From assembly GCA_023480665.1 (NCBI GenBank), contig JAMCWR010000041.1:3378-67377 (forward strand): a stretch of 64,000 nt of DNA. The letters run 5' to 3'. A program made the translations under genes and the position numbers. Below the pieces are notes generated by a model. That model did not search any database. It saw only the letters and a program-made list of their open reading frames with translations, and was not told where the DNA came from. Position 1 is the stretch's first letter. The number at the start of each line of letters is the position of its first letter. This stretch comes from Gammaproteobacteria bacterium. GTDB taxonomy: Bacteria; Pseudomonadota; Gammaproteobacteria; UBA9339. This document shows positions 8,127 through 46,450 of the stretch, one piece after another.

Positions 8127-8153
8127 TTTTTTCTCTGTACAAATTTTAACTTA

Positions 8154-8186
8154 TTGATTTTAAAAGCAAATTTTTTTACATGTTTT
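8154..8186. repeat. Dispersed intergenic repeat, copy A
   Basis: TTGATTTTAAAAGCAAATTTTTTTACATGTTTT is near-identical to 22865-22897 and, inverted, to part of 46334-46383. Confidence 0.7.
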
Positions 8187-14734: not shown

Positions 14735-14810
14735 GGGGCTATAGCTCAGCTGGGAGAGCACTTGCATGGCATGCAAGGGGTCAGCGGTTCGATCCCGCTT
14801 AGCTCCACCA
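14735..14810 (+). tRNA. tRNA-Ala (anticodon GGC)
   Basis: GGGGCTATAGCTCAGCTGGGAGAGC..CTTGC-ATGGCAT-GCAAG..GGTTCGATCCCGCTTAGCTCCACCA. Nearly identical to E. coli tRNA-Ala(GGC) as recalled. Confidence 0.95.
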
Positions 14811-15007: not shown

Positions 15008-15083
15008 GTCCCCATCGTCTAGAGGCCTAGGACATCGCCCTTTCACGGCGGTAACATGGGTTCGACTCCCATTGGGGACGCCA
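15008..15083 (+). tRNA. tRNA-Glu (anticodon TTC)
   Basis: GTCCCCATCGTCTAGAGGCCTAGGACATCGCC-CTTTCAC-GGCGG...GGTTCGACTCCCATTGGGGACGCCA. Confidence 0.95.
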
Positions 15084-22671: not shown

Positions 22672-22845
22672 ATTTTTACCCCCATATTTTATACATTTTT
22701 TGTATATTTTATGGTAGTTATTTTAAATAAAACCGGCACATAAATCAAGCCATTAACGTTACTTTTAAAGTTAAATAATTAATTATAGATCTGATTAAGC
22801 GTTTTTTTGTGAATTTTATAATATATTGATTAATAACGAAAAAAC

Positions 22846-22897
22846 TTGCATGTTTTGTAACTCTTTGATTTTAAACGTAAATTTTTTTACATGTTTT
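22846..22897. repeat. Dispersed intergenic repeat, copy B (longest)
   Basis: CTTGCATGTTTTGTAACTCTTTGATTTTAAACGTAAATTTTTTTACATGTTTT matches copy A (8154-8186), inverted copy C (46334-46383) and a partial copy at 328-346. Confidence 0.7.
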
Positions 22898-24147: not shown

Positions 24148-24334
24148 CTATCTAAACGCCAATTTTGCTTGACACCCCAGGGCCCATTTTGCCATTAACA
24201 CGCTATGCATAAAACCCCAGTTCCATCCAGCTAACTTTCGCATAGCTTTTAAACTAACTCTAAGCATTGACAGACTAATTTTTAATGAGGGAGCTCTGGA
24301 GCCCTGATGTAGCCCCTTTGCTGTTTGTCATGTA
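24148..24334 (-). mobile_element. ISAs1-family transposase 3'-end remnant (left, inverted copy)
   Basis: The minus frame reads ...SLKISLSMLRVSLKAMRKLAGWNWGFMHSVLMAK...*, resembling the ISAs1/H-repeat C-terminus (K.RK.AGWD.DYL..VL). 24194-24253 is the inverted repeat of 27228-27287. Confidence 0.55.
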
Positions 24335-24397
24335 TATAGATATAATAATAAAATTGGATAATGTTTTTACTGGATTATAATCCCGAGGGAATTTTAT

Positions 24398-25528
24398 ATG
24401 AAAAAGGTATTGATACTGCTGTGCCATATTATAGCATTTCTTGGTTTTACTTTCTGTGCTTCATCTTATGCCTGTACTAGCTTTATTCTTAAAGCCAAAG
24501 ATGGTAGTCCAATTTACGGACGATCTATGGAATGGGGGCTTTCTGATTTTAAATCTAACTTGGTTTTGGTGCCACGTGGTTTTACTAATATCACTTCTTT
24601 AAGTGGTGGTAAGGCAGGGATGAAATGGAAAAATAAATATGGTTTTGTTGGTATCAATGCTTTTAATTTGCCATTTTATATGGATGGGATGAATGAAGCT
24701 GGTTTGACGGTAGGTAGTTTATTTTTACCTAATCTTGCCGAATTTCAATCTTTTAAAAGTGGCGCCGAAGCTTCAACTATAAATAGTGCGCAATTAGTTG
24801 GTTATCTTCTTGGTCAATTTAGCAGTGTCGCCGAAATAAAAGCGAGGCTTCCTAAAATACGTGTTATTGATAATCCAGATATTACCAAAGCTTTTGGCGC
24901 ACCAATTACAGTGCATTTTGTGGTTACGGATAATATGGCAAATTCAATTGTGATTGAGTATGTTGCCGGCAATCTTAATATTTATGATAACCAAGTTGGG
25001 ATTATGACGAATTCACCCACGTATGATTGGCATCTTAAAAACTTACGCAATTACGCCCATCTTTCACCATATGGCTCACTTCCTGGAAGCGCTACTACTG
25101 TTGATGGTATTAATTTCTCTCCTTTTGGAGCTGGCTCGGGGATGATTGGATTGCCAGGGGATTATACACCGCCATCGCGCTTTGTTCGCGCTTTCTTTTT
25201 TACGCATAATTCATTAGTGTCAGAAAATGCTGCGACGGCAGTCGATCAAGCGCATCATATTCTTAATAATTTTGATATTCCAAGTGGCACTGTCCGCGAA
25301 GGCATACCTGCGAAATACTTCATTGAATATACGCAATGGAGCGTGATTGGCGATCTTAAGAACAAACGTTATTACTGGTGGACCGAATGGAATCAACAAA
25401 TACGCATGGTTGATTTGACTAAACTTGATTTTAGCGAAAGCAAAGCAATTGCTACGCCATTAGACAAAATACGAATAAATAACATTGAAGATCGCACCCA
25501 AGATTTTGGGAGAGCATCAAGCAAATAA
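24398..25528 (+). CDS. Secreted choloylglycine hydrolase / linear amide C-N hydrolase (Ntn, CBAH family)
   Basis: The signal peptide ends ...SSYA, followed by the nucleophile Cys in CTSFILKAKDGSPIYGRSMEW, typical of penicillin V acylase and bile-salt hydrolase family maturation. Confidence 0.8.
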   Translation: MKKVLILLCHIIAFLGFTFCASSYACTSFILKAKDGSPIYGRSMEWGLSDFKSNLVLVPRGFTNITSLSGGKAGMKWKNKYGFVGINAFNLPFYMDGMNEAGLTVGSLFLPNLAEFQSFKSGAEASTINSAQLVGYLLGQFSSVAEIKARLPKIRVIDNPDITKAFGAPITVHFVVTDNMANSIVIEYVAGNLNIYDNQVGIMTNSPTYDWHLKNLRNYAHLSPYGSLPGSATTVDGINFSPFGAGSGMIGLPGDYTPPSRFVRAFFFTHNSLVSENAATAVDQAHHILNNFDIPSGTVREGIPAKYFIEYTQWSVIGDLKNKRYYWWTEWNQQIRMVDLTKLDFSESKAIATPLDKIRINNIEDRTQDFGRASSK

Positions 25529-25568
25529 ATGCATGATACAAAATAGGAACAACGAGGAACCAATAACC

Positions 25569-26996
25569 ATGAAAAAACCACTTATCGTTTTTTTCTTCTC
25601 GCTAATTTTTATTTGCAAAAGTGTTTTTGCCAGTATCTCAGACCACGGTCTCAGGTTTAATAGTGGCGAACATATTTTTATCGGCAATGCCATTACGATT
25701 TTTTTTCCAATCCTAGCAAATGGTAGTTATCAATATCAAGATGTTTATGGTGGTCAAGCCGATTTTCGCGCCTGGCTAAATTTACCATTAAAGCAGACCC
25801 TAACTTTTGGCAAGTTGGTGGCAACTCCCGATCTATTTGCTGATCCAAATACGGCAATTTCAGATGGTGCAACTTTAGCTGAACGGTGCGCTATTTTTGA
25901 AAAATGTCTCAATGTATTTTTGGCATCCTCAAAAGAGACACTTGATCAGGTTTTTGCGAATATGGATGATGAAGCAGCATGGGTGGAATTTTATCTGTTA
26001 CGCCATTGGCAGCCCTCCAAAATGTATGAAAAATATGCCAAGATTTTTGTTATCAAATATTTCTTAGCCGTTCCGGCTTCAGCTCAGCTGCAACTCATCG
26101 GCTGGGATCATTTTGGTAAATATGCAACTTTGGCATATGTGGCGGGACATGCTGAGGCTATTAAAGCGGCGGTTGCTGCGCATAACACTAAAGATGCAGC
26201 CGAACAACGCCAAAAGCTAGTTCAAGCATATGCGAAGGAGGGCTACGCTGATCATTTTCTTACGGATAGATTTGCGAGTGGTCATATGCGAACTCCAGAT
26301 AAGGAAATTGCACAAATTCTTCCTAAAGATTTTGGTTCCCAAGCCGTGGCTGCGTTGATCGCAGTTTTGATGCATGATGAAGATAATAAATATGGCTTAA
26401 CTGTTAGCAATCTGCACGGCGATCATTGGATTTCATACGGTGATCGTCGATATCTTGATCACGATGATGCGGCGAATTATGACATTATTCAAAAAGCCAC
26501 GCAGACTTCGTCTGATGAAATCAAGAAAGCATTTCTTACCGGGCTACCAATTCAACCGGAAAATTTCGCTGCACTGCAATTTCTAACCAATTTAGATAAA
26601 TTGAATGATTATTTGGATTATGTAAATAATCAGCATGGAATCGTGCCAATCTTTGCATACGACGCCGCCACAAATGATGTGTTGCGACGACCAGATATTA
26701 ATAAATTACATCCCGATCCTCAATCAATGCCAATTACCAAAGGTTATTTTCTTTCGCATAGCGGTACTAAAGGCTGGAATGAGTGGGAGACTTTGCTTGA
26801 ATTAGAGTTTAATTATCATCCGGAATTATTTGTTAATGTCGATGTAAATGCCAAAAATTACCTGGCTGCAAACGGTAGGTTAAATGCAGAGGGTATGCGA
26901 CTTTTAGCTTCATCATTAAATCTTTTCGAACGTGCAGTCTTTTGTGCTGACAAAACTACAGAGCAGAAGCTGCGAAATTATCTGCAGTGTGAATAA
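25569..26996 (+). CDS. Secreted hypothetical protein with H-x3-D-x5-H motif
   Basis: Signal peptide MKKPLIVFFFSLIFICKSVFA from ATG 25569. The motif HFLTDRFASGH has the H-x3-D-x5-H spacing of zinc PLC / P1 nuclease sites, but other ligands are not evident. Confidence 0.6.
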   Translation: MKKPLIVFFFSLIFICKSVFASISDHGLRFNSGEHIFIGNAITIFFPILANGSYQYQDVYGGQADFRAWLNLPLKQTLTFGKLVATPDLFADPNTAISDGATLAERCAIFEKCLNVFLASSKETLDQVFANMDDEAAWVEFYLLRHWQPSKMYEKYAKIFVIKYFLAVPASAQLQLIGWDHFGKYATLAYVAGHAEAIKAAVAAHNTKDAAEQRQKLVQAYAKEGYADHFLTDRFASGHMRTPDKEIAQILPKDFGSQAVAALIAVLMHDEDNKYGLTVSNLHGDHWISYGDRRYLDHDDAANYDIIQKATQTSSDEIKKAFLTGLPIQPENFAALQFLTNLDKLNDYLDYVNNQHGIVPIFAYDAATNDVLRRPDINKLHPDPQSMPITKGYFLSHSGTKGWNEWETLLELEFNYHPELFVNVDVNAKNYLAANGRLNAEGMRLLASSLNLFERAVFCADKTTEQKLRNYLQCE

Positions 26997-27059
26997 GCTA
27001 TTAACAAAAAATGTCAATGCAAGACCCAACCCCGGAGAGAGAGGATTTTATAGAATTAT

Positions 27060-27324
27060 ATCTTTTTTTCAGCTTACCCACACATTCTGAAAGAAAACCT
27101 TGTTTTTTTAATGATGGTTAATGCCAAATTCGTAAAGAGAATGCGCCAAGTGATATAGCTATTATTAAGAAAACTGTTTTTGAATGTATTGCAGATAATC
27201 AAAAACCAGGCCTAGAATTAGGGCTAATTTAAAAGCTATGCGAAAGTTAGCTGGATGGAACTGGAGTTTTATGCATAGCGTGTTAATAGCAAAATTTTAT
27301 GAGGGAACCCTGCTTGGCGCCTGA
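27060..27324 (+). mobile_element. ISAs1-family transposase 3'-end remnant (right copy, with stop and frameshift)
   Basis: FNDG*CQIRKENAPSDIAIIKKTVFECIADNQKPGLELG, then in another frame LKAMRKLAGWNWSFMHSVLIAKF...*. Compare the recalled ISAs1 C-terminus ...NEDxxRIRxGNAxxNLAxxRHIALNLL...KRxKAGWDxDYLxxVL. Confidence 0.6.
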
Positions 27325-38545: not shown

Positions 38546-38691
38546 ATTTATTATCTCCTTTTTATTATTGTTTGCGATAGGATGATATAGCATTAATATT
38601 AACGAAATATTATGCATGCTTATGGCAAGATTATGTGATTTACCTCACAAACAAACAAATTTGGAGCAAAAAATGATGTGATTGTTTATTC

Positions 38692-38869
38692 GGGGTAGCG
38701 AGCACATTTAAACCAAAGCGTACGGTTTCAATTTTTAATCTAATAATTTCAATAAGTTATTTTTTACCAAAACAATCACAGATAGTAAATTACGTTAAAA
38801 ATAACTACCTGATTTTTAACGATAAAATTTTACAACCACCAGTTTTGGCAGGAATGTGCTACTATCCCG
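38692..38869. mobile_element. 178-bp miniature inverted-repeat element, copy 1 (Tn3-type IRs, degenerate right IR)
   Basis: Starts GGGGTAGCGAGCACATTTAAACC and ends GGAATGTGCTACTATCCCG. Colinear with copy 2, with about 17 mismatches by hand count. Confidence 0.75.
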
Positions 38870-38915
38870 TTTTGGGAGATTTGTATCGATAAAATAGAAA
38901 ATCTAGGGAGTGAAT

Positions 38916-40859
38916 ATGTGGAATGAAAATAATGTTCGAAGCTTTATCCAGCTTCTATATAGTAGATTATTACATAAATATAATACCAATGTGGAGGGTT
39001 TTATAAATGAGCTTATTGTAAACATGCAAAGCCATAATTCAACTTTTGCAACAAGTATTTTTGAAGGCGCTTTGTATTGTTGCGAAAAAATGTTATTACA
39101 ACCACTGGTTGATAATTGGCTCAAGTTGTTTAATAAAAGCAATGGTAAAATAGAAATACCTATATCATTTGCAACTGAAGTCCATGAAGCTCTTGTTCAG
39201 TCGCAAGAATTTGATTTATGGGTCAATGCTTCGCAAAAGATTAATCTAACAAAGAAAGATATTTACCATTTGAGCGAAGAACACCAAATAGTTTTCGATA
39301 TATTTAATCGTGTTCTTTTTTCTGAAATATCATCCAATCTAAAATTAGAAAATATACCCATTACTTTCATAGTCGATGATCAATTACTGAAAAATAAGGG
39401 TGGGATAACATTTAATACTTGTGGTGGCAAAGAAAATACAACACGCATTTTACCCTATACTCATCCACTAAATAAATTTAAGAGCCGATCTAATAGTGTT
39501 AATGTTGCTACGGTTTGCCATCCATTTTTAAGTTGCGAACAATATGATTTTAATAGGCCTGGCTCTGATTGCCAAAATCTTATTCATCACTATGCTTTAC
39601 ACGAAAGCGCACATGCTCTTGGATTACTGCATTACGATTCCAACATCAATAAGCTTTTAAATAATTCAGTATATTGGGATATAAGCATAATGGGTAAGAT
39701 TGATGAGGTCGGATCACTCTCTGCAAACCAATGTTCAGGAGAGTGCAACTATTTAATGGGGCTTGAATTTAAACCCCTAGACTTTTTTTTGCTATATATC
39801 GCTTATAATTATGGATCATGTCAGCATTTTATCAATCATGTTCATGTTGAGGTTATGTCTTCAAAGGCGTTGGAAACAACTGATAGCGAAAACGCTCATA
39901 TTTTGGCTTCATTGGCTCCGCAACCAGCAACTAATGTTATGGTCGATGCAATCAACACAACAGATAATACTTCTAATGCCAGAGTATCAGGATTGTCTGG
40001 TGCCCCGGGTATTACTGGCGCACCATTTGGTTTTGAAGAAATACAGGAATCTGGTGCTACTTCTGCCAGTAGCTCTGCTTGGTTTAACTGGGGCATCCTA
40101 TACCCATTCTTTAGCATTTTACGTACGCCGTCACCATTTATGATTTCCGAAAAAAATAGCGAACCCCAACGCCCAGAAGAAAAACAAGAGGTCAAGCAAG
40201 GAACGGTAATGGGGCGCACTGTTGAGATGCCATATCAAGATACTAGAAGTGTCGTTCAATCGTTAGATGGCAATATTGGATTATTTGCTGTAATGACACA
40301 GTGGGCTGCCGATGCTTGGAATTGGTGGGTAATACCCAAAAAACCACCTGTAGTTTATATGGAAGAAAAAGCCTTTGAACGTAACTTATACCGCTGTGAA
40401 CATTATCTAAGAGCAATTAAAAATCAATTAAATGAAACATATAGCTTTATAAATAGAATGAGAAAAACTTATGCAATAAATGTTTATAATTTTGCAAAAC
40501 AGCAACTTGCAGCACTACAAGATGCTTATTATATGCATCAAGAAACTTTTGAATACCTTCAAGAAAAGAGGCACGCAACAACAGAAGAAATGTATGAATT
40601 GCTACAAGATTTAGAATATTTAAAAACAAATGCTTTCATCGAAGCACGTGAAGACATAGAAATGTTTATAGAAAGACAAAAAAATGAAGTAAGATTACAA
40701 GAGGAAATGGATGGTTTTTTAAAGAGACGAGCAGATACATTATCTTTGATTGTTGGTTACAGACCACCAACAGTTTTTTCAGCACAAGTTACATCACAGC
40801 TATCTCCACTCAGCAGAGAACATACATCTAGCACGCACGTTAGTAATCGACCTAATTAG
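38916..40859 (+). CDS. Hypothetical protein with metzincin-type zinc motif HEXXHXXGXXH and C-terminal coiled coil
   Basis: HHYALHESAHALGLLHYD contains H-E-S-A-H-A-L-G-L-L-H. AGGGAG RBS 6 nt before ATG 38916. The C-terminal ~170 aa are heptad-rich. Confidence 0.6.
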   Translation: MWNENNVRSFIQLLYSRLLHKYNTNVEGFINELIVNMQSHNSTFATSIFEGALYCCEKMLLQPLVDNWLKLFNKSNGKIEIPISFATEVHEALVQSQEFDLWVNASQKINLTKKDIYHLSEEHQIVFDIFNRVLFSEISSNLKLENIPITFIVDDQLLKNKGGITFNTCGGKENTTRILPYTHPLNKFKSRSNSVNVATVCHPFLSCEQYDFNRPGSDCQNLIHHYALHESAHALGLLHYDSNINKLLNNSVYWDISIMGKIDEVGSLSANQCSGECNYLMGLEFKPLDFFLLYIAYNYGSCQHFINHVHVEVMSSKALETTDSENAHILASLAPQPATNVMVDAINTTDNTSNARVSGLSGAPGITGAPFGFEEIQESGATSASSSAWFNWGILYPFFSILRTPSPFMISEKNSEPQRPEEKQEVKQGTVMGRTVEMPYQDTRSVVQSLDGNIGLFAVMTQWAADAWNWWVIPKKPPVVYMEEKAFERNLYRCEHYLRAIKNQLNETYSFINRMRKTYAINVYNFAKQQLAALQDAYYMHQETFEYLQEKRHATTEEMYELLQDLEYLKTNAFIEAREDIEMFIERQKNEVRLQEEMDGFLKRRADTLSLIVGYRPPTVFSAQVTSQLSPLSREHTSSTHVSNRPN

Positions 40860-41045
40860 CAAAGCTATCTTGCCAAATAGATATTTTTGACCCCCAGAAT
40901 TTTACTAGTACACTATGACCATAAACTACAGTTTAAAGCCAGGCCAATTTTGAGAATTGAGAGCCTTGAATTTAAAGGGCTGGCGATTGGAAATTTGTTA
41001 GGGGTTTTTGGCCAGGCAATTGTTTAATTTTATGAGAACAAAAAA

Positions 41046-41825
41046 ATGGAAAACATAATAATACAAAATTCTGTACAGCAAGCAGAAAAAGAAGCTTTTG
41101 AGAAAATCACTCCTCACATAAGTAAACATTTAGACTACACAACACAAGTATACGATATTCTTTGCCAAGTAAATTTACTGTTAGTAGGAAAGAAACTCAA
41201 AGAAATCCCTTACACTCATTTCGTGCACCAGATACTTATTGCAAGAATCGCCGATTACTTAAGACCTGTTATCTTATTGACACAGCAAGGCTATGTTGAC
41301 CAAGCAGCTACTCTTGCTGCCTCAATGTTCGAGCTTGCACATACACTTCTTTATATTGGCTGTGATATAGATCGAGCAAGATTGTGGGGAAAAGCAAACG
41401 AAATTGAAGATGAAATGCCGCGAAAAGTTTTTGGTAAAAACTGGCTAGAAATAATTTCGTGCAATAAAGAAATTTATGACGAAACATTCATAAATGATGA
41501 TGAATACAACGTTTATAAGCAGCTATGTTGGATGAAACATTCATTGCCTTGTCTGCAAGGAATGTCTTACGACAAAGACGAGGAGGCGGTTTGGGTTTCT
41601 TTTGCTCCCCGTTGGGATAACAATGCAGTAAGAATCGCTTCGTTTGCTTTACAACATTCAGGTAGATATGGACAATTAGCTGTAGGCTCACTTTTTATAA
41701 ATCATGCAATCACTAATGAACTTATAGAAAAAAAGCAATTTGAAGCTAGTACACTAAGACTACAACTGCACAATGAAGGCATTACTAAATATGGTAATAG
41801 TAGCCCTTTTAAAGAAACCAAATAA
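41046..41825 (+). CDS. Hypothetical protein (first gene of a 4-gene same-strand cluster)
   Basis: 259-aa ORF, helical, no confident domain. Faint resemblance to DUF5677-type proteins, not verifiable here. Confidence 0.5.
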   Translation: MENIIIQNSVQQAEKEAFEKITPHISKHLDYTTQVYDILCQVNLLLVGKKLKEIPYTHFVHQILIARIADYLRPVILLTQQGYVDQAATLAASMFELAHTLLYIGCDIDRARLWGKANEIEDEMPRKVFGKNWLEIISCNKEIYDETFINDDEYNVYKQLCWMKHSLPCLQGMSYDKDEEAVWVSFAPRWDNNAVRIASFALQHSGRYGQLAVGSLFINHAITNELIEKKQFEASTLRLQLHNEGITKYGNSSPFKETK

Positions 41826-41881
41826 AATGTTACATTTCTTAAGTTAGTTAAACATATTTTGAAGAAGCGAGGTAAATTATT

Positions 41882-42550
41882 ATGAATTACTTTTTACTTA
41901 TCCTTTTAATATTTTTTTTCATATTTGTTGCAATATATAACGAGCAAATAAAAAAGCTCTTTACTATATTTGCCGATAAAATGCAGCAAGCTTCCAATCT
42001 ATCTTGCAAAGACTTAAATATAAACTTTGTTAACCCGTTAGACATAAACACAATACAAAATCAAAACATTGGGAATCAACTGTATTCTGCTGAGCAAAAT
42101 AAAGCATACGAGAACTTAGTTGGAAATAAAAACTTATTCATCTCTGAAAGAGAAAAATTTATCACCGCCGAATTAATAAAATCGAAGTTGCCACCAGCCA
42201 GATGCATAGATGCTTTAAAAGAAACTTTGGCCAAAATGATGCTTATCAATAATTTTTTACTTATAGACAAAGTCATTTTTCAGCAACAAATATCATTGCT
42301 TGGGTATTTGAATATTAATTACTTTGCAGAAAAAGAGGATTTAAAAAATTTTTACGACGATTGGAAGGCAAACAGTGAGCCACATATAATAAAAGATTAC
42401 CTTAAATATGTGCCTATTTCGCTTGATAAATTTATAGGATTTTTAATAGATTCTCAGCTTATATGCATTACAAGTGAGCACAAATATAATATTACATCTT
42501 TCGGTAAAGAGTTTTTATCCTACCTCATTAAGATAGGAAGAAAAATTTAA
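41882..42550 (+). CDS. Hypothetical protein with N-terminal TM and C-terminal winged-helix-like segment
   Basis: The N-terminus LLILLIFFFIFVAIY is hydrophobic. The C-terminal FIGFLIDSQLICITSEHKYNITSFGKEFLSYL is wHTH-like. The gaps to its neighbours are 56 and 37 nt. Confidence 0.5.
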   Translation: MNYFLLILLIFFFIFVAIYNEQIKKLFTIFADKMQQASNLSCKDLNINFVNPLDINTIQNQNIGNQLYSAEQNKAYENLVGNKNLFISEREKFITAELIKSKLPPARCIDALKETLAKMMLINNFLLIDKVIFQQQISLLGYLNINYFAEKEDLKNFYDDWKANSEPHIIKDYLKYVPISLDKFIGFLIDSQLICITSEHKYNITSFGKEFLSYLIKIGRKI

Positions 42551-42587
42551 GCCTTGTTATATCAATTAAATTTCTTGTAAGGTAAAA

Positions 42588-43190
42588 ATGAGAATAGGAT
42601 TATACGCGCGAGTATCTACAGAAGATCAAAACACTTTGCCAATGCAAATACAGGCATTGCAAAAATATGTTGCTAGTCGTGGCTGGACTGTTGCTCTGCA
42701 AATTGAGGATGTTGGCTCTGGCGCCAAAGAAAAACCAAAGCGCGACGAATTACTAAAAGCAGCACGTAGACGTGATATAGACGCAATATTGGTTTGGAAA
42801 CTTGATCGCTGGGGTCGTTCTGTAACAGATTTACTCAATACCTTAACAGAGCTAAACCAATTGGGTGTAGGTTTTATATCTATAACTGAAGCATTAGACC
42901 TAACTACCCCAACCGGCCGGGCAATGGCAGGATTGCTTGCTATTTTTGCTGAATTTGAGCGCGATTTATTATGTGAACGCGTAAAAGCTGGCATTGCTCA
43001 TGCTAGAAAACTTGGTAAAGCTCATGGCCGACCAATAACTGTTGCTAATAAAACCGACGAAATAAAATCACTTTTTAAAAAAGGATTTAGTAAATCAAAA
43101 ATTGCAAAGGCTTTAAATATAAGTAGAACCTCCATTAGGCGACTACTTACAAAACCCAACGACTCAAATATTGAAATAGCAAGAAATTAA
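42588..43190 (+). CDS. Small serine recombinase (resolvase/invertase family)
   Basis: MRIGLYARVSTEDQ (catalytic Ser context), ...LVWKLDRWGRS..., and a C-terminal HTH (SKSKIAKALNISRTSIRRLL). Confidence 0.9.
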   Translation: MRIGLYARVSTEDQNTLPMQIQALQKYVASRGWTVALQIEDVGSGAKEKPKRDELLKAARRRDIDAILVWKLDRWGRSVTDLLNTLTELNQLGVGFISITEALDLTTPTGRAMAGLLAIFAEFERDLLCERVKAGIAHARKLGKAHGRPITVANKTDEIKSLFKKGFSKSKIAKALNISRTSIRRLLTKPNDSNIEIARN

Positions 43191-43216
43191 ATGTTAAAAC
43201 TAAAGGAAACTAATTT

Positions 43217-43795
43217 ATGAAAAAAATATTTATTATATCCACAATTCTTCTTGGTTTGTCAGGCATTGTTTTTGCTGATCACAACCAAAAGATAGCTAGT
43301 CACTTAAATAAAGCTGGTACTACAAAGATGGTTGGCGCAAAAATAAGTAACGTTAGATTTTTAGTTACAAAATTTGACGAAACTTTTTTATTTTATCGCG
43401 ATACCCTTGGATTCAAAGTAACCTGGGGTGATTTAGGTGAGATTTTTGCTCAGTTCCAGCCAGGTGATGATCCTAAAGAATTTTTTACAATTTTTTCAAA
43501 GAAACTTATGGCAGAAGATGTTAAAACATTACATCTTCCATCATTTGCCTCAGCACAAGACAATGTGGTTTTAGTTTTCTCTTTGGGGTCACGGGAAAAT
43601 GTCGATAAATTTTATCAAATATTAAAGACAAAGGGCGTCAAGTTTGTTGATCAACCACAAGATCACCCACGCTGGGGCATTCGTACAGTACATTTACGTG
43701 ATCCAGATGGCAATCTTTTGGAATTTATGGCTGAACTTCCACCAGATAAATATAGCGAGGAATTAAAAAAAGAATTTGCGAAATATGCCCATTAA
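43217..43795 (+). CDS. Secreted VOC/glyoxalase-family protein
   Basis: Signal peptide (IISTILLGLSGIVFA). The VOC pattern FYRDTLGFKV...HLRDPDGNLLEF is present. Confidence 0.7.
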   Translation: MKKIFIISTILLGLSGIVFADHNQKIASHLNKAGTTKMVGAKISNVRFLVTKFDETFLFYRDTLGFKVTWGDLGEIFAQFQPGDDPKEFFTIFSKKLMAEDVKTLHLPSFASAQDNVVLVFSLGSRENVDKFYQILKTKGVKFVDQPQDHPRWGIRTVHLRDPDGNLLEFMAELPPDKYSEELKKEFAKYAH

Positions 43796-43985
43796 TTATC
43801 TTTAAAGTAATTGCCTATACGGGTGATTGGTAATTATAAGAGGCTCCCTTGGCGTGCTTTTACGAACGAATTCGTTTACTACCCTATTGGACAGGAAAAA
43901 ATTGTTAATATTTCTAAGGGAAAATGATAATAGTAATTCCAGAGCTAAATCATAAGGGGTGGTTTTGTTAGACCCCGAATACATT

Positions 43986-44774
43986 TCACTGAATATTTTC
44001 ATAAGGGGAATCTAAATACATTCCAACCCCACCTTCCAAACTTCCTTTTGGATCGCGATTTTGTCTAGTCATGCGTGACACATAGCATGCATCTGAAACA
44101 CAACCAACAAAATATGAAATATGATCTTTAGAATCTGGCTTATTTAGTTTTTGCCACAGGCGTTTTCCATTAACTTCATTAATTTTTATAAAACCAACTC
44201 CAGGAATACAAATCATTGAAACAATACCACTTTCAGCTGGGCAGTTACACTCATGGAAAACGTCTAATAAACGCTGATATTCACTTTCAATGGAGGTGCA
44301 ATCTGTTTGATACGCAAACAGCAAATTAAAAGCTCCAGTTTGTCTTTGAATATATTCAGAACGAACTGTAAATTTTAATGAGTTAACTTGTTGTGACCTC
44401 GCTATGAATTTTTTCAGTTCAGGCCTGGTTAATTTTGATTTTACTTCGATTCGACATAAGACACTATTAACAAGAAAAACTCCATCTGGTGTATTATTGG
44501 AACCGAGAATCGGTGGCGCTAACAGTTCATCATAAAGTAAAATATCTTCTTGTCCTGCTTCAGTTATCTTATTAGCAGCGTCTATAATGATTCCTGTACC
44601 ACATTTAATGCCAAGAGGCAGCCAAGGAGAGAGAATGTTGTTAACAAGAATCTCTCTTAATCTACCTTTTACAACAGGATGCCCTACCGCCTGTTCATGC
44701 TTGAATAAAGCAAGTAAATGATCTGAATCAATTTGCAGCCTTTCTAAAATATAGTTTATCATAAGGTTATCCAT
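43986..44774 (-). CDS. DUF6602-like PD-(D/E)xK fold protein
   Basis: VKGRLREILVNNILSPWLPLGIKCGTGIIID...QEDILLYD...VLCRIEVKSKL fits the recalled DUF6602 pattern (G..E..lr.fL...LP....v.tG.iiD...Q.DivIYD....avIEVKS.L), that is D...E-x-K. Confidence 0.55.
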   Translation of the reverse strand: MDNLMINYILERLQIDSDHLLALFKHEQAVGHPVVKGRLREILVNNILSPWLPLGIKCGTGIIIDAANKITEAGQEDILLYDELLAPPILGSNNTPDGVFLVNSVLCRIEVKSKLTRPELKKFIARSQQVNSLKFTVRSEYIQRQTGAFNLLFAYQTDCTSIESEYQRLLDVFHECNCPAESGIVSMICIPGVGFIKINEVNGKRLWQKLNKPDSKDHISYFVGCVSDACYVSRMTRQNRDPKGSLEGGVGMYLDSPYENIQ

Positions 44775-44848
44775 TGCTTTGTCATTTTATTTTTTACCTT
44801 TCTGGATTAAAATAGCGTGCACGTAAGATAAGCTCTTTGTTTTATGTA

Positions 44849-45052
44849 CTACAGTTCTGTGCTAGACATAATACGCGCGTCTTTGCATAATGAATTTTTT
44901 GCCGCTTCTTGAGCAAATTTTAATTCTTGATCAAAATTTGCAACAGTTTTCCATTCACCGCACTCAACTGACTTTAACATCTCTCTTTCTTCTTTATTTA
45001 GTTCAAGATCTTTCAAATTATACACTACCTTATTTTGTGTTTGCTTGTTCAT
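44849..45052 (-). pseudogene. N-terminal fragment of a CopG/RHH-type antitoxin-like protein
   Basis: LNKEEREMLKSVECGEWKTVANFDQELKFAQEAAKNSLCKDARI matches the N-terminal half of a recalled antitoxin family (E..iL.s.E.GEwksv.....e...y...Ak....KD.RI.IRL...). The RHH C-terminal half is missing. Confidence 0.35.
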
Positions 45053-45096
45053 AATTCACTTTTTACTTAAAATAAACACACTTCATTACATGGGTT

Positions 45097-45477
45097 TTAC
45101 ACATGAACACCAGTCATGTTGTTATTATTATGTTTAGAAAATGCAGCAAAAATACTTGTATCGTGGTATCTAAATAAATCCTTAGCTTTTACCTGAATAT
45201 TTTCATAAATGCCAAACCCTGCTTTTTCAAGCATTGCTAATAACATACTTGCACTAAATAAATCTATTTTACCTCGAACAAGATTACTAACGCGGGACTG
45301 AGTGATTTTAAACCGTTTGGCTGCTTCTTTTTGGGTTAATCCCTCTAGCTTTATATAGCGCACTATTACAGTCATTAAAAATGACCTGAATTGCAGCTCC
45401 TTAGCCTCTTCATCGCTAAAGCCCATATTAGAAAAAAGATTATCACTGCTCTTTGTAAATTTAATTGCTTTACTCAT
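45097..45477 (-). CDS. HTH_37/XRE-type antitoxin (HigA-like)
   Basis: NLFSNMGFSDEEAKELQFRSFLMTVIVRYIKLEGLTQKEAAKRFKITQSRVSNLVRGKIDLFSASMLLAMLEKAG fits the family pattern. Its ATG overlaps (ATGA) the stop of an upstream toxin remnant. Confidence 0.7.
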   Translation of the reverse strand: MSKAIKFTKSSDNLFSNMGFSDEEAKELQFRSFLMTVIVRYIKLEGLTQKEAAKRFKITQSRVSNLVRGKIDLFSASMLLAMLEKAGFGIYENIQVKAKDLFRYHDTSIFAAFSKHNNNNMTGVHV

Positions 45478-45611
45478 TTTTTAGTACCTCTTAAATAATT
45501 AACCACCGCTTTGTATCGCTGCTTTCCTATTTCAATATCGTGCTTAGATATATTTTCTTGATAAAAGCATGTAATAAGTAAATTGCAAATATATACAGTA
45601 AAAATAGACAT
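45474..45611 (-). pseudogene. Truncated HigB/Gp49-like toxin remnant (45 codons)
   Basis: MSIFTVYICNLLITCFYQENISKHDIEIGKQRYKAVVNYLRGTKK*. The tail resembles Gp49-family C-termini (F.KKTQKTP..EIE.A..R). It is translationally coupled to the antitoxin and too short to be a complete toxin. Confidence 0.35.
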
Positions 45612-45671
45612 TATGTGGTGCTATTTGCGTATGAAAGCCTCACACCCTAGGAGTGGCATTGTCCTATAAAC

Positions 45672-46040
45672 CTATTGATGCATTAAGGCTCTTTCTACCG
45701 CCTGAGATTCGTGGTTAATCACTGTTAACAAAGTACAAGCCGGCCCTTCTGGATGACGTCTCCCCTGCTCCCATTCTTGCAAGGTACGTTTACTAATACC
45801 AAAGTATGCGGCAAAAACCGCTTGGCTCATGTTCAATTTTTCCCTGATTTGTTTAATATCCGTTGATTTTAATGAGTGCACTCTTTTAAATTTTGCTAGC
45901 TGTTTTTTGGTTGTAGGTCTTGCATCTTTATCAAGGCGAGCAGCAGCATTGATTTCTTTGTCTGAAAGCTTTGCAACCTTTTTCCAATCAGTTTTATCAA
46001 CTGGTAAGGTTTCTATTGTATAAGTACGTTTCTCTTTCAT
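45672..46040 (-). CDS. BrnA/DUF4415-like plus XRE-HTH antitoxin
   Basis: DWKKVAKLSDKEINAAARLDKDARPTTKKQLAKFKRV is DUF4415-like. It is followed by IREKLNMSQAVFAAYFGISKRTLQEWEQGRRHPEGPACTLLTVI (COG2944-type HTH). GGAGGG RBS before ATG 46040. Confidence 0.7.
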   Translation of the reverse strand: MKEKRTYTIETLPVDKTDWKKVAKLSDKEINAAARLDKDARPTTKKQLAKFKRVHSLKSTDIKQIREKLNMSQAVFAAYFGISKRTLQEWEQGRRHPEGPACTLLTVINHESQAVERALMHQ

Positions 46041-46107
46041 TTTTGTTTGCCCTCCGCGCAGAAATAATTCTGTGGTTAGATTTACGAACGGTGTAAATAA
46101 CGCATAA
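45997..46107 (-). pseudogene. BrnT-like toxin 3' remnant, 5' end cut at the miniature-element boundary
   Basis: The minus frame from 46107 reads LCVIYTVRKSNHRIISARRANKNERETY...*, matching the BrnT/DUF497 C-terminus (...RIISAR.A.K.ER..Y). The frame runs directly into copy 2 of the 178-bp element at 46109. Confidence 0.5.
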
Positions 46108-46108
46108 T

Positions 46109-46286
46109 GGGGTAGCAGGCACATTTAAACCAAAACATACGGTTTCAATTTTTAACTCAATAATTTCAATAAGTTCTTTTTCACCAAAACAATCACAGAT
46201 AGTAAATTACGTTAAAAATAACTACCTTATTTTTAACGATAAAATTTTATAACCGCCAGTTTTGGCAGGAATGTGCCTGCTACCCC
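46109..46286. mobile_element. 178-bp miniature inverted-repeat element, copy 2 (Tn3-type 38-bp IRs)
   Basis: The ends GGGGTAGCAGGCACATT... and ...AATGTGCCTGCTACCCC form a perfect 17-bp terminal IR, and 29 of 38 positions match over a 38-bp IR. No ORF. Confidence 0.8.
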
Positions 46287-46333
46287 TATTCGAAAAATTA
46301 TGCTCTTAAAATTTTTCTTTTAAAATCAAATGG

Positions 46334-46383
46334 AAAACATGTAAAAAAATTTGCGTTTAAAATAAAAGTGTTACAAAACATGC
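46334..46383. repeat. Dispersed intergenic repeat, copy C (inverted relative to A and B)
   Basis: AAAACATGTAAAAAAATTTGCGTTTAAAATAAAAGTGTTACAAAACATGC is the reverse complement of copy B with a few mismatches. Confidence 0.7.
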
Positions 46384-46450
46384 CTGAATTTTTTATTGTA
46401 ACGCTTTTATTAATAACGAAAATTTCATAATGTAGGTTTTCTTTTTTTAG

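Follow-up and report, generated by a model that had tools for sequence, protein, structure and literature searches.

In this study, we analysed a stretch of 64,000 nucleotides, hereafter the window, from an uncultivated Coxiellaceae/Legionellales-like bacterium, and found that positions 38692–46286 (all positions are coordinates in the whole window) hold two short units with Tn3-type ends in direct orientation, which enclose a 7.2-kb cargo and are themselves enclosed by a 5-bp direct repeat. This 7.6-kb region of the chromosome is probably a composite non-autonomous transposon of the Tn3 family that was inserted as one unit by a transposase acting in trans. Composites bounded by two Tn3-derived miniature elements (TIMEs) have been captured experimentally in Pseudomonas by Szuplewska et al. 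(2014, PMC4133298), who named them TIME-COMP. In the following, the unit means the mini-element of 177/178 bp.

Copy 1 of the unit lies at 38692–38868 on the forward strand and copy 2 at 46109–46286 on the same strand. Both are non-coding, and no open reading frame (ORF) of 60 amino acids (aa) or more is present within either of them, as is expected of TIMEs, which are non-coding, transposase-less sequences of 50–500 bp. The first-pass annotation of this DNA had given the location and direct orientation of the two copies correctly, but it had described both as 178 bp long with about 17 mismatches. Ungapped comparison showed 19 mismatches. Seven of them arise from the loss of 1 nt in copy 1's right end, which leaves copy 1 with 177 bp and not 178 bp. 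When one gap was allowed, the copies were 91.6% identical over 178 columns (14 substitutions and one gap). Their longest identical stretch is 45 nt in the middle of the unit, at unit offsets 74–118; the variants of copy 1 are found to the left of it at offsets 8, 9, 26, 28, 47–49, 67 and 73, and to the right of it at offsets 119, 141 and 146 and in the degenerate tip. With 8% divergence between them, the copies did not arise by a recent replicative duplication.

The ends of copy 2 are at 46109–46146 and 46249–46286. Its 17-nt tip, GGGGTAGCAGGCACATT, was found on both strands with no mismatch, and the left and right ends agree at 29 of 38 positions, both of which confirm what had been annotated. 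The outer (left) end of copy 1 (38692–38729) keeps an intact GGGG tip, GGGGTAGCGAGCACATT, and its inner (right) end (about 38832–38868) is degenerate, with a GGGA tip and the 1-nt deletion (GGGATAGTA-GCACATT). The outermost ends of the region are intact on both sides, as in known TIME-COMPs, the right tip being a perfect match to the left tip of copy 2; intact GGGG tips on the outside together with a degenerate inner tip of copy 1 support the composite. The 17-mer tip pattern was matched three times in the window, against 0.11 matches expected in shuffled sequence. As single-stranded DNA, copy 2 folds into a single long hairpin (z = −10), which follows from its long terminal inverted repeats and is expected of any such element. 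Each unit also has an internal dyad, CGTTAAAAATAA...TTATTTTTAACG (38792–38822 and 46209–46239; offsets about 100–130), which is perfect in copy 2 and forms a 12-bp stem in the fold; this dyad could be a protein-binding site.

The pentanucleotide TATTC was read directly to the left of copy 1 (38687–38691) and, in identical form, directly to the right of copy 2 (46287–46291). The inner flanks, GTTTT on the right of copy 1 and ATAAT on the left of copy 2, do not match each other, so that both sites read as first annotated. Neither copy has a target duplication of its own, of the 5 bp, rarely 6 bp, that a singly inserted TIME should have (the flanks being TATTC/GTTTT for copy 1 and ATAAT/TATTC for copy 2), and the only 5-bp duplication encloses the whole 7.6 kb. 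A duplication around the pair only is expected if the pair moved as one. Gomi and Yano (PMC13367494) take the outer direct repeat as the criterion for inferring that a TIME-COMP has transposed in the past, and TATTC is such a repeat, within the 5–6 bp that are looked for outside the outermost ends. The probability that all five positions match by chance was 0.0014 from base composition and 0.0021 empirically, for the same spacing in the window. TATTC does not stand on the inner side of either copy, nor beside a similar end in an unrelated contig (L001), and the flank of another such end (L006) is TATTA. Therefore TATTC is not part of the unit, and the reservation made in the first-pass annotation, that it might simply belong to the unit, falls. 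The absence of individual duplications and the unmatched inner flanks are the pattern expected for a composite that was formed from two independent older insertions; neither a cointegrate nor a circle with one normally inserted TIME would be expected to give it.

The ends of the units are those of the Tn3 family, and the units are Tn3-type miniature elements, as had been proposed. The Tn3 inverted repeat given in the first-pass annotation was correct; the exact 38-mer is present in at least 5000 plasmid records and stands beside blaTEM in plasmid NTP16. The ends in the window agree with this 38-mer at 21–23 of 38 positions, and with the published IS101/Tn3 ends at 22–24 of 38 (p about 0.001–0.003 against shuffles that keep the GGGG tip); the published TIME sequences for comparison were those of Table S2 of PMC13367494. 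As a scale for these values, the Tn3 and IS101 ends agree with the ends of Tn21-type TIMEs (TIME244, IMU) at 18–24 of 38 positions and with each other at 27–29, and Vibrio and Francisella ends agree with each other at 26.

A closer match was obtained by low-stringency blastn of the ends against PLSDB. The matched 38-mer, in the Vibrio campbellii plasmid pIFL1_1 (NZ_CP092684.1), lies 40 nt past the stop codon of a transposase gene that is intact and encodes 977 aa (PF01526 at 1.7e-137, and DUF4158). It recurs in inverted orientation about 29 kb away, and the pair of 38-mers therefore delimits a Tn3-family transposon (481 to about 29.9 kb). Relatives of this transposase were found in Alteromonas, cyanobacteria, Klebsiella, Escherichia albertii, Francisella and Simkania. 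An element of 4.9 kb in the Klebsiella pneumoniae plasmid pCAV1344-40 (NZ_CP011620.1, 4968–9840) has ends GGACCAGCGGGAGCATTTGAACAGAAACTTACGGTTTC and a clean 5-bp duplication, ATCCA, a feature that it has in common with the composite of the window. The left end of the unit agrees with the Vibrio ends and with the Klebsiella ends at 28 of 38 positions each, the common stretches being AGC.GG..CATTT.AAC..AAAC.TACGGTTT. This identity is at least that within the Vibrio/Francisella clade (26/38), is comparable to that within the Tn3 subgroup (27–29/38) and is well above the 18–24/38 of the Tn3 and IS101 ends against Tn21-type TIME ends, and it connects the units to Tn3-family transposons with intact transposases. 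The Vibrio and Klebsiella elements differ from the unit in that they encode a transposase of about 980 aa, in that their resolvases are only 37–42% identical to that of the window cargo, and in their tips, which are GGACC in this clade and GGGGT in the window. Because the tips differ, we treat the GGACC-tipped clade only as the nearest known relative by sequence, which is not proven to be the source of the transposase. In pIFL1_1 (L012, 12006–12400), a Tn5053/Tn402-like tniA-tniB-tniQ module was seen to begin about 330 nt inside one of the transposon ends.

IS101, the 209-bp TIME of pSC101 that belongs to the Tn3/Tn1000 subgroup, resembles the unit in its size, its GGGG tip and the inner block AC-AAAAC-TACG-T, with 21–23 of 38 positions in agreement. 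However, IS101 has a functional res site of its own. The interior of the window unit does not resemble the cargo's res-like site, and on this ground a res site within the 178-bp unit was considered and rejected.

The cargo consists of nine ORFs, all intact, which occupy 38916–46040. The first-pass annotation had noted a resolvase-like gene and no tnpA, and both statements hold. The 200-aa protein encoded at 42588–43190 (forward strand) is a TnpR-like serine resolvase (PF00239 at 1.1e-42, and HTH_7). Domain scans found no Tn3-type transposase (PF01526/DUF4158) in any cargo ORF, and tblastn of the N-terminal fragment of a DUF4158 transposase found nothing in the window. Between the first and the second cargo gene, on the forward strand at 40885–41016, lies a conserved non-coding block with the motifs GGCCATAAACTACAGTTTAAAGCCA and GGGTTTTTGGCCAGG, which resembles a res site. 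Just upstream of the closest resolvase genes, on contigs L008 and L011 (87% and 83% identical), stand about 135 nt of non-coding DNA with 78–81% identity to this block. The motifs GGCCA.AAACTA.AG.TTA.AGCCA and GGGTTTTTGGCCAGG stand directly upstream of two more resolvase genes (L014, L015), where the aligned res-like stretch ends at the start codon of the resolvase. The block of L014 occupies the classical res position, with a DUF4158 transposase fragment on one side and the resolvase gene on the other; in the window a 259-aa gene and a 222-aa gene stand between the block and the resolvase gene. These comparisons suggest that the cargo carries the resolution half of the Tn3-type machinery, a resolvase with a putative res site, that an autonomous Tn3 unit would combine with a transposase.

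The closest relative of the window resolvase (87% identity) is a protein of 302 aa on the plasmid-like contig L008, which also encodes ParA, TraG/TrwB and RelE. A resolvase with 72–74% identity is encoded divergently next to the Tn3 transposase fragment in L014, and that of L011 adjoins IS21 genes. The closest homologues (P0001, P0002, P0013) have 300–302 aa and extend at the C-terminus about 100 aa further than the 200-aa window protein; the following glyoxalase gene begins 27 nt after the stop codon of the window resolvase. No full-length terminal repeat was found at the resolvase loci L008, L011 and L014, only a 15-nt inner motif in L011. Homologues of the L014 DUF4158 fragment led to Tn3 transposase genes (L018–L021), and matching ends were not found at these loci. 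When the cargo was searched against PLSDB, only one match was obtained, to part of a resolvase on a Legionella anisa plasmid, the surroundings of which were uninformative. In L011, whose resolvase gene is 83% identical to that of the cargo, a small palindrome with CCAAAACCTACGGTT was noted at 1604–1690, with the res-like block on one side and this gene on the other. The same 15-mer is the inner block of the terminal repeat in L006, and it matches the left end in the window at 14 of 15 positions. The palindrome may serve as a protein-binding site, or it may be left over from a related mini-element.

From this structure the following course may be proposed. A Tn3-family transposase from elsewhere would have bound copy 1 at its left end and copy 2 at its right end, the two outermost ends, and carried the whole composite into an AT-rich intergenic site, with murA on one side and a 331-aa gene on the other, by which TATTC was duplicated. 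Transposition of the Tn3 type is replicative, and a fusion of donor and target, the cointegrate, is its standard first step (PMC13367494). This fusion could have been separated by the resolvase and res-like site that the composite itself carries, so that only the transposase would be needed from outside. The damaged inner end of copy 1 would now bar that copy from moving alone. The first-pass annotation had read the 7.6-kb unit as inserted once, as a composite mobilised in trans; the duplication that brackets the whole composite and the unmatched inner flanks agree with this, and the single event is read from these two observations, no empty or second site having been found.

Several points weigh against a single insertion of the composite. 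A cointegrate or a recombination event would yield the same outer structure. The best MurA identity in the collections was 82%, which leaves no close relative for an empty-site comparison, and the empty-site 23-mer was absent from the metagenome collection. The same composite at a second insertion site was not found either. The search for a Tn3-family transposase that has matching ends and belongs to the host lineage gave none; the closest ends found are GGACC-tipped, and the related transposases found come from other hosts. Lastly, the window comes from a metagenome-assembled genome (MAG), and an independent Logan assembly of run SRR10267473 with k = 31 breaks at the 45-nt common core of the copies, its contigs ending at 38795, starting at 38781 and ending at 46138. 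Because of this break, the linkage across each copy is not independently confirmed.

The unmatched inner flanks GTTTT and ATAAT disfavour the three explanations that involve a circle. An unresolved cointegrate, in which one TIME on a 7.2-kb circular donor transposed replicatively and the fusion stayed since the TIME has no res, is in our view unlikely. It gives exactly the outer structure that is seen, direct copies within the outer TATTC, by the standard first step of Tn3-type transposition; the closest resolvase homologue is on the plasmid-like contig with ParA, TraG/TrwB and RelE, and small antitoxin- or regulator-like helix-turn-helix (HTH) genes, such as those in the cargo, are common on plasmids. 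However, the copies would have been identical at its formation and now differ by 8% while every cargo ORF is intact, and the inner flanks should repeat the 5-bp duplication of the donor. No gene of a recognisable Rep or partition family was found in the cargo, although three ORFs have no assigned family. The near-identical copies, matching inner flanks and replicon genes of a cointegrate or integrated plasmid were thus not found in this region. The divergence of the copies would be accounted for together with the outer duplication by a Campbell-type integration, in which homologous recombination between a chromosomal TIME flanked by TATTC and a diverged, circle-borne TIME inserted the circle and produced two hybrid, reciprocal copies, with the 45-nt identical stretch at offsets 74–118 as a possible crossover point. 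We give this only a small chance, since the perfect 17/17 terminal repeat of copy 2 suggests a native unit that has not recombined, the inner flanks form no duplication, unlike those of a normally inserted donor TIME, 45 nt of identity is a poor substrate for homologous recombination and no replicon functions are seen in the cargo.

The 45-nt core also bears on a loop in the assembly, that is, one TIME at the site and a separate 7.2-kb circle with one TIME that was threaded in through the common repeat. The k = 31 contigs break around the core, so that the graph permits both resolutions. Yet the window runs through both copies, ordinary reads are longer than a 45-nt repeat, the two copies differ in sequence and were not collapsed, and the TIME of the hypothetical circle would have no duplication (ATAAT against GTTTT); the chance of such a loop seems slightly smaller again than that of the Campbell-type event. 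It is very improbable that two TIMEs were inserted independently with a chance match of TATTC, or that TATTC is part of the unit. The region is AT-rich, and short matches are somewhat likelier there than in balanced DNA, but the probability of the match was still about 0.0014–0.002. Independent insertions should each have their own duplication and neither copy has one, and as part of the unit TATTC should not be missing from the other sides of the copies and from the L001 flank, nor be TATTA in L006.

The composite lies in the intergenic site between murA and the 331-aa gene, 70 nt upstream of the latter. The closest relatives of the host MurA are at most 82% identical, and a Coxiellaceae entry among them is 79% identical. 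The gene order of the window is rluD-yfiH-degQ-[577 aa, 331 aa]-composite-murA-mlaB, and that of a relative is mlaFEDCB-murA-[hydrolase, rsmJ]-degQ-yfiH-...-rluD. As the relative encloses different genes there, the slot appears variable between conserved neighbours, which holds at the level of gene order only, the nearest relatives being 82% identical in MurA. The cargo itself was found only in the same organism, with 100% identity, in two sequencing runs (SRR10267473, SRR10252151), and exact-protein look-ups of the flank and cargo genes also led to the same organism only, in contigs that break at repeats.

The unit family is repeated in this genome, which also supports the composite. A third, decayed copy lies on the forward strand at 61091–61229, with 69% identity over unit positions 12–141 (E = 2e-13) and tips that are no longer recognisable. 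A strong hairpin (about 61013–61075) stands just upstream of it, and a repeat-rich gene region follows downstream. The Logan contig L004 breaks off after the first 30 nt of copy 2, at a point where no 31-mer is shared with copy 1, and this break is only a hint of more unit copies in the sample. Among genome representatives, a collection in which the window's own genome is not included and copies are not countable genome-wide, the end pattern had one match, in L001, a contig from a Lentisphaerota MAG, near PIN-like and NERD-like genes. In metagenomes, the match in L006 is real and stands at the contig end directly after the stop codon of a gene; another, in L007, lies inside ubiB and is due to chance. 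No match to the end pattern was found in viral contigs, and the 178-bp unit had none in PLSDB. Since the same kind of end occurs in the unrelated contigs L001 and L006, the end family is, as far as sequence comparison goes, mobile across lineages.

A wider role may be imagined for the composite, although we hold it to be doubtful. It could be a self-resolving, transposase-free satellite of an undescribed Tn3 subgroup that joins the GGGGT tip to the inner block of the GGACC clade (Vibrio, Klebsiella, Francisella, Simkania). Such a satellite would use the transposases of that clade with its own res and resolvase, and would move orphan and nuclease genes between the chromosomes of amoeba-associated intracellular bacteria, even across phyla, as the same end in Lentisphaerota might indicate.

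The other cargo genes were described as effector and defence-like in the first-pass annotation. These labels are weakly founded, because the largest protein is an orphan and only one product, a DUF6602 nuclease, matches the defence library. The orphan of 647 aa (38916–40859, forward strand) has no match in Pfam, NCBIfam, PHROGs or PADLOC, and a search of 1.84 billion representative proteins yielded only two homologues, both weak and partial. Its translation includes the string HESAH, in agreement with the HExxH pattern; no metalloprotease family backs it. The second gene (41046–41825, forward strand; 259 aa), which starts where the resolvase gene starts in the related loci, has a weak match to DUF5677 (E = 0.0013, below the Pfam cut-off), and the third (41882–42550, forward strand; 222 aa) has a hydrophobic N-terminal stretch and belongs to no known family. 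The resolvase gene is followed by that of a 192-aa glyoxalase/VOC-family protein with a hydrophobic N-terminus (43217–43795, forward strand; PF00903 at 5e-15). On the reverse strand are the gene of the DUF6602 protein, a PD-(D/E)xK-type nuclease (43986–44774; PF20247 at 4e-17; PADLOC PD_DExK 5.5e-23, NucC 1e-7), and three small antitoxin- or regulator-like genes (44849–46040), which encode proteins of 67 aa, 126 aa (HTH_37) and 122 aa (MqsA/NadS-like HTH).

The GC content of the cargo is 34.7%, against 37.2 ± 1.5% elsewhere in the window, and 4 of 42 other 7.2-kb stretches of the window are at least as far from the window average in their tetranucleotides. Composition was left out of the evidence, since it marks the cargo as no more than mildly atypical. 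Promoter and terminator scans at the junctions of unit and cargo gave no more sites than in shuffled sequence, and an Rfam scan found nothing in the composite region.

Other repeats were observed in the window. An intergenic repeat family of 43–59 nt, with 86–88% identity, occurs at 8144–8186, 22839–22897 and 46334–46392, the third copy being inverted. This third copy lies 43 nt to the right of the composite, and the Logan contig L002 ends beside it at 46324. A 78-nt inverted repeat (24186–24263 and 27218–27295), with arms that are 94% complementary and 2954 nt apart, brackets two ORFs with hydrophobic N-termini (24398–25528, 376 aa; 25485–26996, 503 aa), and 24186–27295 looks like a second repeat-bracketed cassette of a different repeat family. 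A partial tmRNA gene (1–284) and tRNA genes at 2330–2400, 14735–14807 and 15008–15080 are unrelated to the composite.

The first-pass annotation had called the route an unusual one, which is overstated, as TIME-COMP is a named and experimentally shown class (PMC4133298, PMC13367494). Gomi and Yano reported in a 2026 survey TIME-COMPs of 1.3–11.4 kb, with units in direct or inverted orientation and 5-bp repeats (PMC13367494). The composite of the window agrees with these in that passenger DNA lies between two short units that lack a transposase and have Tn3-type ends of about 38 bp, in the 5-bp direct repeat beyond the outermost ends and the direct orientation, which is among the known arrangements, and in its size of 7.6 kb. 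On the other hand, it is chromosomal and in a Coxiellaceae/Legionellales-like host, whereas the published ones are from Pseudomonas and Enterobacteriaceae, and the TIMEs of the latter are predominantly plasmid-borne and very rarely chromosomal (PMC13367494). Its cargo has no resistance genes and includes a resolvase and res-like module, and its 178-bp unit is a new sequence family, absent from PLSDB. A TIME with a resolvase and res has been named TIME-RES (PMC4133298). Like the composite, TIME-RES is a non-autonomous Tn3-family element with a resolvase and res and without a transposase. It is a single unit of 1.2 kb with one pair of ends, whereas in the window the module lies inside a composite of two complete TIMEs and two extra genes split the res-like site from the resolvase gene. 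The kind of element is therefore known, and what is new is the sequence family, the host group, the chromosomal site and the combination of COMP and RES features.

The known mechanism of transposition is unchanged by this finding. TIMEs are missed by annotation pipelines because they have no transposase gene, and nearly all of the documented TIME composites are found on enterobacterial or Pseudomonas plasmids, with antibiotic-resistance genes as cargo. In the present composite, the presence of a resolvase and res-like module inside it suggests that labour is divided, the transposase being borrowed and the resolution carried. The origin of orphan genes in host-associated lineages is usually unexplained, and this chromosomal case suggests that the same route can move ordinary accessory genes, such as the 647-aa orphan, a PD-(D/E)xK nuclease and antitoxin-like regulators, in these lineages.

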